This document shows positions 2,470 to 37,238 of a stretch of 37,392 nucleotides of DNA, piece by piece (positions within the stretch are counted from its first letter, which is position 1; each line of letters begins with the position of its first letter). The notes under the pieces are model-generated. The model was not told where the DNA came from. It did no database searches and saw only the letters and a program-made list of their open reading frames with translations. A program made the translations under genes and the position numbers. Source of the stretch: a virus (Duplodnaviria > Heunggongvirae > Uroviricota > Caudoviricetes). Where the stretch lies: IMG/VR virus record IMGVR_UViG_3300045996_000852, positions 128,001 to 165,392 of that record; one strand, 5' to 3'.

Positions 2470-2886
2470 TTATTGAAGTTTGTTAAGCAAATTGGTTAAT
2501 GAATCATTCATATTTTTACCTCTGTTGATATGTATAATTCTATTCCTCGATTCAAGTATCCTATTGAAATACTTCAATATATCCTTGAGAATAAATCGGT
2601 TAATAGAAATCATATATCCAAATGTATGATTATGAATCTCAATAATATTATCTTTGATAGTAATATTGATACCCAATCTATCATTCACTATGAATTTGTC
2701 ACCAGAGATAGGTGAGGGAAATAATTCTGAATCTTTCAGCCTCATGATTGATTTACAGATATTGTAAACTAACATATCTGTATTGTTTGCAGGATTGCGT
2801 TTTCTATGGTAGTTATTTCTACGATACCATAACTTCTTCATCTTGAATTTCAAACTGTTTATCATGAGTTGTAGTTTGGTTTGCAA
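2470..2886 (-). CDS. Hypothetical protein
   Basis: 138 aa ORF, start uncertain. Confidence 0.7.
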   Translation of the reverse strand: MQTKLQLMINSLKFKMKKLWYRRNNYHRKRNPANNTDMLVYNICKSIMRLKDSELFPSPISGDKFIVNDRLGINITIKDNIIEIHNHTFGYMISINRFILKDILKYFNRILESRNRIIHINRGKNMNDSLTNLLNKLQ

Positions 2887-2895
2887 ATATAGGAA

Positions 2896-3084
2896 CTATA
2901 AACCTAGTTCCAAATGTCTATTTTTCCAATACTCATGGTTCTTTGAGTAGTGTTGCTGAATTACATGCATGTTTTTATTGTAATACAGTCTTTCTTCATC
3001 AGTGAGGAGATTACCTTCCATAATAAGTTTATCTAATCTCCACATTTCTTTGAGTTTGTTGTTAGTTTCTTGGTCAATCGGCAT
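2896..3084 (-). CDS. Hypothetical protein
   Basis: 62 aa ORF, tightly packed in gene run. Confidence 0.65.
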   Translation of the reverse strand: MPIDQETNNKLKEMWRLDKLIMEGNLLTDEERLYYNKNMHVIQQHYSKNHEYWKNRHLELGL

Positions 3085-5670: not shown

Positions 5671-5976
5671 TTAGAATTGACAATTTTGTTTCCACCACTC
5701 CTGAAATGTAATAGGATTCTCCAACATATCAGACATCATTTTACCATCAGGAAACTTCCTATACAAACCTTTGGAAGTAGGAATACTGTAATTGGTTTGT
5801 AAACCAAATAGTTCTCCAATAGTAACAGTATCAAGCATGTCATTCTCCTCATTAACAACCAGTTCCCACTTATCTGACATGTCATGTTTGAATACACCAA
5901 TACAAATCTCTTGTATTTGTCTGAGACATGTACCTAATTGTCTCTCAATACCTTGGAATAAATCTAATCGTTTCAT
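5671..5976 (-). CDS. Hypothetical protein
   Basis: 101 aa ORF. Confidence 0.7.
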   Translation of the reverse strand: MKRLDLFQGIERQLGTCLRQIQEICIGVFKHDMSDKWELVVNEENDMLDTVTIGELFGLQTNYSIPTSKGLYRKFPDGKMMSDMLENPITFQEWWKQNCQF

Positions 5977-6004
5977 TTTGAGCAGTTTAGTAGTTAATAA
6001 AGAG

Positions 6005-6105
6005 ATAAATACTGTGATTTCAGGTGCTTCACCTGCCTTCTATTATACTTGGAAGCTACCAGTTAAGGTTCACAACCGAGCTTTTTACTTCATCACAATA
6101 TTTAT
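6005..6105 (-). ncRNA. Candidate structured RNA directly 3' of tRNA-His
   Basis: Closing stem ATAAATATTGTGAT/ATCACAGTATTTAT with internal hairpins such as CAGGTG-AAG-CACCTG. Confidence 0.4.
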
Positions 6106-6108
6106 TTG

Positions 6109-6181
6109 GGTGATATACCAGATTCGAACTGGTACGAAGACAACCACAATGTCTCATGCTGACCGTTACATTAATACCACC
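6109..6181 (-). tRNA. tRNA-His (GTG) with encoded G-1
   Basis: G-GTGGTAT...AGACA TT GTG GT TGTCT...ACCAG TTCGAAT CTGGT ATATCAC-C. Confidence 0.9.
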
Positions 6182-6188
6182 GTATTTG

Positions 6189-6264
6189 GGTCTCATAGCA
6201 GATTCGAACTACTATCAAGGGCATGATTGGAAGCCCCTATCCTAGCCATTAGACGAATGAGACC
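6189..6264 (-). tRNA. Atypical tRNA with 10-nt anticodon loop (TTCCAATCAT), G-1:C73
   Basis: Acceptor GTCTCAT/ATGAGAC, D arm GTCT..GGAT, anticodon stem GGGGC/GCCCT, T arm AGTAG TTCGAAT CTGCT. Confidence 0.75.
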
Positions 6265-6268
6265 ATAT

Positions 6269-6388
6269 AAATCTTTATATTATGAGATACCTTTTCCGTG
6301 GTCACTGGTTATCCAGTATGTGTTTTACGTTCCACACCCCTTTTCGGTGACATTGTACTCAGTTGGCTCTTATTTAATATAAAGATTT
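6269..6388 (-). ncRNA. Candidate structured RNA between tRNAs
   Basis: Perfect 14-bp closing stem aaatctttatatta (6269-6282)/taatataaagattt (6375-6388) enclosing GC-richer hairpins. Confidence 0.45.
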
Positions 6389-6389
6389 G

Positions 6390-6462
6390 GGTGCTGTAAA
6401 GGAATCGAACCTCTCTTTCAGGCAGAAAAAGCCTGTGTCCTAGCCGATAGACGAACAGCACC
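6390..6462 (-). tRNA. Atypical tRNA: Glu-like body, anticodon TTT, C37, G-1:C73
   Basis: G-GTGCTGT TC GTCT ATCGGCTA GGAC A CAGGC TTTTTCT GCCTG AAAG AGAGG TTCGATT CCTTT ACAGCAC-C. Confidence 0.8.
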
Positions 6463-7374: not shown

Positions 7375-7485
7375 AACTTATAGTTTTACAATTAGTTAGA
7401 TAATAAAACAAATATAGGAACTACAGGTATTAGCTATAGTTCCCATATTTATTCGTTTCGTACAGTTTAATGTGTAACGTACAAT

Positions 7486-34338: not shown

Positions 34339-34340
34339 CT

Positions 34341-34411
34341 GTGGCTGTAGCTTAATGGTAAAGTGGTAGTTTGTGGCACTACTGATGGGAGTTCGATTCT
34401 CCTCAGTCACC
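34341..34411 (+). tRNA. tRNA-His (GTG), T rather than G at -1
   Basis: GTAGT TT GTG GC ACTAC; C73. Confidence 0.93.
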
Positions 34412-34778: not shown

Positions 34779-34851
34779 ACCCTCGGAGCTTATGTGGACA
34801 AGCTGCTCACTTTTAATGAGAGGATAGTAGGTTCGAATCCTATCGGGGGTA
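34779..34851 (+). tRNA. tRNA-Lys (TTT)
   Basis: CTCA CT TTT AA TGAG; G at position 8. Confidence 0.9.
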
Positions 34852-36992: not shown

Positions 36993-37065
36993 GCCCCTAT
37001 CGTCTAGTGGTCTAGGATACACGACTTTCTATCGAGTGACACGGGTTCGAATCCCGTTGGGGGTA
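36993..37065 (+). tRNA. tRNA-Glu (TTC)
   Basis: CACGA CT TTC TA TCGAG (one stem mismatch, T37). Confidence 0.9.
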
Positions 37066-37142: not shown

Positions 37143-37149
37143 CTTAATC

Positions 37150-37233
37150 GTCCTACTCCTCCTGTGGAATCTATCCACGAAGCAACTGAGGCTAGGTTGT
37201 GATACAGTAACCACTGTAGGGAGGACGTAGGAC
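37150..37233 (+). ncRNA. Candidate four-way-junction RNA
   Basis: Long closing stem gtcctac-tcctcct/gggagga-c-gtaggac with three hairpin arms. Confidence 0.55.
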
Positions 37234-37238
37234 AAAAT

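Follow-up and report, generated by a model that had tools for sequence, protein, structure and literature searches.

Two tRNA-shaped genes of a large crAss-like phage combine an intact histidine-type acceptor end with an abnormal anticodon loop, and judging from their sequence we consider it probable that both RNAs are charged with histidine and take no part in decoding. They belong to a trio of minus-strand genes, A, B and C (Table 1), whose third member is an ordinary tRNA-His(GUG). The window (the whole stretch of DNA that was analysed, 37,392 nucleotides) is the final 37 kb of a virus record of 165,392 bases with terminal repeats. Terminase, portal and major head protein gave PHROG family matches, and the best annotated relatives of the terminase were crAss-like and Flavobacterium phages at ~25% identity, from which we infer that the host belongs to the Bacteroidota. 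About 28 tRNA genes lie in arrays on the strand of the virion genes; the trio stands alone on the opposite strand, alongside recA, helicase and RNase H genes. The first-pass annotation had placed the trio outside the tRNA arrays and among early genes: its separation is confirmed by the strand, but the word early reflects only the gene content of that strand. The ORFs flanking the trio, examined for toxin-antitoxin genes, showed no informative family.

Table 1. Features of the trio and its surroundings (window coordinates, except where a contig is named)
Feature	Position	Strand	Description
Gene A, tRNA-shaped RNA	6390..6462	-	His-type acceptor G-1:C73, Glu-type core, 7-nt loop UUUUUCU; G-1 at 6462, G1 at 6461, C73 at 6390
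Gene B, tRNA-shaped RNA	6189..6264	-	His-type acceptor G-1:C73, Glu-leaning core, 10-nt loop UUCCAAUCAU; G-1 at 6264, G1 at 6263, C73 at 6189
Gene C, ordinary tRNA-His(GUG)	6109..6181	-	Encoded G-1, C73; 7 nt downstream of B; G-1 at 6181, G1 at 6180, C73 at 6109
Structured spacer between A and B	6266..6389	-	Perfect 14-bp inverted repeat 6269-6282 / 6375-6388; fold z -3.5
Structured trailer after gene C	6005..6105	-	14-bp closing stem; fold z -4.3
Terminator-like hairpin upstream of gene A	7006-6976		
15-nt intergenic motif ending TATATTTG	7409-7423 and 2884-2898	-	Repeated elsewhere in the genome
Array tRNA-His(GUG)	34340..34411	+	T at -1; the sole C73 gene among the 27 others
Array tRNA-Lys(TTT)	34779-34851	+	Unusual D arm
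Array tRNA-Glu	36993-37065	+	T37, anticodon-stem mismatch
Folded spacer beside tRNA genes	37144-37238	+	Fold z -5.2; no Rfam match
CCA-adding/repair-family nucleotidyltransferase	G000:C1:126422-127984	-	521 aa, C-terminal zinc-binding motif; just outside the window

An encoded G-1 opposite C73, the central claim made for the trio, was read directly in 3/3 of its genes. The acceptor stems of A, B and C pair at 7/7 positions in addition to G-1:C73, with one G·U in C. This is not a matter of chance, since 0/27 other tRNA genes parsed in this genome have both bases (two have G at -1, and one has C73). CCA is encoded neither by the trio, whose genes all end C73-CAAAT, nor by any of the 27 others. 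Equally correct was the observation that the trio holds a single His anticodon, found only in the loop of C (TTGTGGT). In the available part of PMC9976931, G-1:C73 suffices for histidine charging of mini- and microhelices, which supports the His-type identity assigned to A and B, and the anticodon still adds to selection by HisRS in vivo.

Gene C has the cloverleaf, the G-1, the C73 and the GUG in a 7-nt loop of a tRNA-His; both ARAGORN and Rfam called it His (51.3 bits), and our position classifier made it His whether or not the end bases were included. With an ordinary tRNA-His among its members, the trio does not form one functional class. The three genes are mutually alike at just 19–38 positions among 48–61 compared, which indicates that they are old, and still 0 stem pairs are broken. 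A simple duplication of C is not supported as the source of A (core 19/48); for B, with a core 30/48 alike to that of C, it may hold.

In four relatives (G001, G002, G003 and G005) the array tRNA-His has G-1; relative to these, the array gene of this phage, with T-1, is one G short. A contig of run X1 reproduces the T-1 without any difference, ruling out an assembly error. As encoded, the array tRNA-His is without the main HisRS determinant, and gene C possibly stands in for it. Since the array gene has T-1 and those of the relatives G-1, C may be the only directly chargeable tRNA-His of the phage, unless a Thg1-like enzyme is supplied by the host; a Thg1-like gene was present in one of the two Bacteroidota genomes checked, so the host could mend the array tRNA-His. 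The oddities of the array tRNA-Glu and tRNA-Lys(TTT) may be those of nuclease-evading variants.

In genes A and B, all four stems and the invariant bases are intact and the abnormality is confined to the loop. The loop of A, TTTTTCT, has U33, a UUU triplet and C37 and is two changes away from TTTTCAT; that of B, TTCCAATCAT, is 10 nt long and might be a CTC-type loop into which three bases were inserted. Neither contains GUG, and both look like broken Glu loops. ARAGORN and Rfam called A as Lys-TTT (46.5 bits). UUU is indeed present, but A has C73 in place of A73, and C37, and our position classifier left Lys outside its top four classes; A73 is required for Lys identity in the available part of PMC9976931. 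Gene B was missed by default ARAGORN and by Rfam and was found at a relaxed ARAGORN threshold and with our own parser.

Bodies were compared with Bacteroidota genes over 48 core positions, the loop being excluded, and acceptors over 16 positions. The core of A matched the tRNA-Glu of Alistipes at 36/48 positions, other Bacteroidota tRNA-Glu at 31–34/48 and four Bacteroidota tRNA-His at 21–26/48. That of B matched Glu at 29–32/48, host His at 19–23/48 and phage His genes at 27–30/48, and its origin appears less clear than that of A. The acceptor of A agreed with that of C at 12/16 positions and with Glu at 5–7/16. An augmented D helix (U11-A24, U13-G22-A46 and no base 47) belongs to the core features of tRNA-Glu, and both genes have it, A with the variable region AAAG. 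The classifier ranked Glu first for both bodies, and with the end bases A tied between His and Glu; in leave-one-out trials it was right for 46/49 His and 6/7 Glu sequences, its Glu training set being just these 7. When the region was compared with phage records by BLAST, all 17 matches were to gene A, and 15 of them are annotated as tRNA-Glu. The Glu-like body that had been proposed is thus supported, in that the core of A matches Bacteroidota tRNA-Glu best.

The Glu-type tertiary core, the classifier ranking and the annotated BLAST matches, together with G1-C72 and U2-A71 in both genes, would also fit RNAs of Glu identity, that is substrates or decoys of GluRS or glutamyl-tRNA reductase in which G-1:C73 is incidental. 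We give this explanation very little credence. The compared Bacteroidota Glu genes have A73 and no G-1, whereas A and B have C73, and the acceptors of A and B agree with theirs at 5–9/16 positions; neither gene has kept the Glu anticodon (no YUC at 34–36), and the ranking draws on the 7 Glu sequences.

The D arm shared by A and B, TCGTCTA..GG.TAGGA, had been described as Glu-type. The arm is present, but it is not specific to Glu: when it was searched for together with C73, tRNA-His(GTG) made up 2/2 viral and 14/22 metagenome matches. The arm therefore does not prove descent from Glu, a reading that we rejected because true tRNA-His share it. Since this arm is not diagnostic, and since A agrees with true tRNA-His that have a GTCT D arm at up to 34/48 positions, A and B may either be Glu bodies that gained a His acceptor or members of a Glu-like His subtype that lost the anticodon.

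Elements that combine a His acceptor with an abnormal loop recur in ~11 unrelated viral families. In viral contigs, tRNA shapes with G-1 and C73 and without a His anticodon gave 57 matches, 20 with abnormal loops (11 clusters) and 5 with canonical loops (5 clusters); the control, C73 without G-1, gave 43, of which 7 were abnormal (5 clusters) and 24 canonical (14 clusters). The excess of abnormal loops with G-1 over the control is significant on clusters (Fisher p = 0.018, leaving out His leak-through, 18 and 3, and stem-test failures, 14 and 9); this uniform automatic count supersedes a hand count of 13/5 against 3/20 (p = 2e-4). The enrichment for G-1 is expected equally from His ancestry alone. 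Pairs of elements occur in L090/L091 and in L104. Of the 18 genomes searched, 2 (G046 and G049) have a normal G-1 His gene in addition to the odd element. In each of them the odd element closely copies this gene, the acceptor and T arm being almost unaltered and the anticodon arm rewritten. Among the 120 matches listed from cellular genomes, 75 did not parse as tRNA, 21 were His, 17 had canonical non-His loops and 7 abnormal ones.

If charging without an anticodon is the purpose of such RNAs, then Ala identity should be used alike, and this prediction held. Among 120 listed viral loci with an Ala acceptor (G3·U70, A73; L451-L570), 75 had abnormal arms (55 clusters), 17 had canonical other loops, 20 were Ala and 8 failed; with ~330 matches estimated overall, Ala-acceptor equivalents are more common still in viral contigs than the His-acceptor elements. 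Both scans exclude cognate anticodons by design and the loop classifier errs both ways; for the first reason, and because the Ala scan lacks a matched control, its result establishes the existence of the class and not an enrichment. Two other groups of loci came up in this survey. A 63-kb phage has three tandem tRNA-like genes with broken anticodon arms (L082:394-765, the same element in L175), which have a GTCT D arm, C73 and an encoded CCA, but T-1. The loci L076, L085 and L087 (~594-666), L127:1002-1073 and L089:1002-1073 hold His-acceptor tRNAs with well-formed GGC, TCT and GGT anticodons and are candidates for true mis-decoders.

For A and B themselves, mis-decoding is the least supported of the three readings first suggested. 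A would be a His-charged mis-decoder at lysine codons (AAA/AAG) that harms host or defence proteins, and B a frameshifting or dead copy; the 7-nt loop, U33 and UUU triplet of A allow for this, and canonical non-His loops do occur on His acceptors (17/120 of the listed cellular matches, up to 5/57 of the viral ones). UUU anticodons depend on t6A, which requires a purine at 37, and the C37 of A removes that purine. The loop of B has 10 nt, and Lys codons amount to 85 per 1000 phage codons, so a tRNA of this kind would damage the phage's own proteins. Moreover, in the available part of PMC5389517, a G-1 tRNA1 with a Thr anticodon is charged by E. coli HisRS and inserts no histidine. Given the loop of B, the C37 of A and this non-decoding precedent, we think mis-decoding unlikely.

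The DNA around the trio is structured. The spacer between A and B gave 0 Rfam matches at E<=1 and has 0 homologs in four relatives, which argues against a known RNA family. This spacer, the trailer after C and the folded spacer near the end of the window, all three without an Rfam match, are possibly small RNAs or processing signals. The 15-nt motif ending TATATTTG is likely to be a promoter element of the Bacteroidota type. No motif of this type lies between the terminator-like hairpin and gene A; the closest, at 7416, is upstream of the hairpin. The hairpin and the missing motif weigh against the decoy reading given below.

Conservation in relatives, to which the first-pass annotation had looked, gave a mixed picture: the trio is absent from the closest relative, but one B-like element occurs in a farther one and the class recurs in unrelated phages. 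In G001 (TerL 74%), the closest complete relative, the ORF adjacent to the trio has a homolog, but no tRNA-like gene precedes it; just the array tRNA-His of this genome matches the G-1:C73 pattern, with no second His-acceptor element. Such a second element was found in one of 18 TerL relatives (G002), on the non-virion strand; its loop has 5 nt and its acceptor 3' strand is that of gene B, but the acceptor has one bulged base and the D arm is unlike that of B. The further relatives, mostly fragments, gave 0/17 matches to the trio, and searches for relatives through the AAA ATPase or the CCA enzyme yielded 0 loci. Orphan tRNA-like genes outside arrays and without His identity are present at G003:105946-106020 and at G004:244-317, 5956-6027 and 6306-6378, with odd features that include an 8-nt loop, A32/C33 and a CTA anticodon on a Gly-like body. 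In a near-identical strain from run X1, 7/780 bases differ and 0/7 of the differences fall in the trio (p ~0.09, not significant), while five fall in the ORF and are all synonymous. Run X1 consists of low-depth contigs that leave parts of the region uncovered and may not be independent of the source; we take this sparing as no more than a weak hint of conservation.

Because the trio is missing from the closest relative, decay is still an explanation to be taken seriously. A and B would then be young, jobless relics of spare His-type tRNA genes from the GTCT-D-arm His family, their loops broken perhaps because a His-tRNA with the wrong anticodon is harmful, and only C would matter. True tRNA-His with this D arm are common and A approaches them (up to 34/48) about as it does most Glu (31–36/48), the acceptor of the G002 element is bulged, and there is no promoter motif directly upstream of A. 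Yet the trio is old by its divergence with every stem pair kept, the loops look derived from Glu and not from His loops, and in the duplicated pairs found elsewhere the change is restricted to the anticodon arm. Weighing these points, we hold decay to be rather improbable.

We read A and B as chargeable non-decoding mimics because G-1:C73 suffices for charging, because tRNA1 offers a precedent and because the phage has a gene of the CCA-adding family. This gene lies ~6 kb downstream of the trio on the same strand; it is present in this phage (G000) and in 0/4 relatives, and among 14 other mimic-bearing genomes it occurs in two, both of the paired-mimic lineage G037/G038. A and B have intact stems, G-1:C73, abnormal loops and no CCA. 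From known enzymology, RNase P would leave the G-1 in place and the CCA enzyme would complete the 3' end. By the published identity rules, host HisRS would then charge both RNAs independently of the anticodon, and GluRS, LysRS and TrpRS would do so poorly; the charged RNAs would presumably not be used for decoding. In a last step, A and B would absorb attack directed at the tail or acceptor of tRNAs, and gene C and the array tRNAs would sustain translation. The whole chain, in which A and B would be His-charged decoys against defence enzymes of the host that take hold of the acceptor/T-arm half, is the explanation that we favour, though only tentatively. In the available part of PMC12851939, Cas12a3 is a tail-cutting nuclease that takes the acceptor/T-arm half irrespective of the loops. 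Nucleases specific for the anticodon are unlikely targets: in the available part of PMC11555353, a phage tRNA no longer gave rescue from retron-Eco7 once its anticodon was changed, and tRNA-His gave none.

The structural and survey evidence would serve as well for maintained His-charged non-decoding RNAs with a job other than that of a decoy, namely binding to HisRS or EF-Tu, entry into stalled ribosomes in the way that the tRNA half of tmRNA does, or donation of histidine to a non-ribosomal transferase. The large Ala-acceptor class resembles the tRNA-like domain of tmRNA. However, a Pfam scan of the 138 phage proteins and targeted searches found no HisRS, Thg1 or aminoacyl-tRNA-dependent transferase, which leaves the trio without a phage-encoded HisRS or Thg1 as partner, though most of these proteins matched no family and a transferase could escape notice. 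Nor was a common neighbour gene seen in the 1-kb flanks of the other His-acceptor elements. Such a job is conceivable but doubtful.

Codon supply and the replacement of cut tRNAs, the accepted answers to the long-debated purpose of phage tRNA genes, both need a working anticodon; genes that keep the charging signal and give up decoding suggest that the tRNA shape has a third use. Standard annotation misses or mislabels such genes, as it did here with B (uncalled) and A (called Lys). Dozens of natural elements with a His or an Ala acceptor came out of the survey, which makes the idea testable. More generally, phages might repeatedly build chargeable non-decoding mimics via His G-1:C73 or Ala G3·U70, with A and B made as a His acceptor on a Glu body and forming, with the phage CCA-adding enzyme, a counter-defence module against tRNA-attacking immunity; we put this generalization forward with considerable reserve, as a speculation that may well prove wrong.

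Beyond PMC5389517, the literature that we covered, in which subscription journals were thinly represented and supplements lay outside (Figure S6 of Mukai may hold more), described no phage class of His-acceptor tRNAs without an anticodon. The accessory tRNAs of other phages, T5 tRNA-Tyr and tRNA-Lys (PMC11555353) and the loop-mutated tRNAs of mycobacteriophages (PMC10264068), likewise have altered loops and a plausible tie to defence; according to the available parts of both papers they keep their anticodon and rescue by translating, whereas A and B have lost the anticodon that would match their acceptor. With tRNA-His(GUG) (RF00005, including the GTCT D-stem subtype), the trio shares the acceptor end, A and B the D arm and gene C everything, but A and B are without the GUG anticodon and the canonical loop and their cores match Bacteroidota His at 19–26/48 positions. 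With Bacteroidota tRNA-Glu(UUC), A and B have the D arm, variable region and tertiary core in common, but differ in the acceptor end (A73 and no G-1 in Glu) and the anticodon. Closest to them is the G-1 tRNA1 from the irregular-tRNA polycistrons of soil Acidobacteria (Mukai 2017, PMC5389517), which has the same combination of an encoded G-1 and a non-His anticodon within a tRNA cluster. In the available part of that paper, tRNA1 is cellular, has a GGU anticodon with GUG at 35-37, is 8/4 in one case and lies near toxin-antitoxin genes; A and B, by contrast, are phage genes of 7/5 form whose core is of the Glu type and whose loops contain no GUG. Their flanking ORFs, which have no informative family, revealed no toxin-antitoxin genes. 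A and B are thus good examples of a recurring, poorly described phage RNA, whose nearest known counterpart is the tRNA1 of Mukai although they differ from it in the sequence features that define it.
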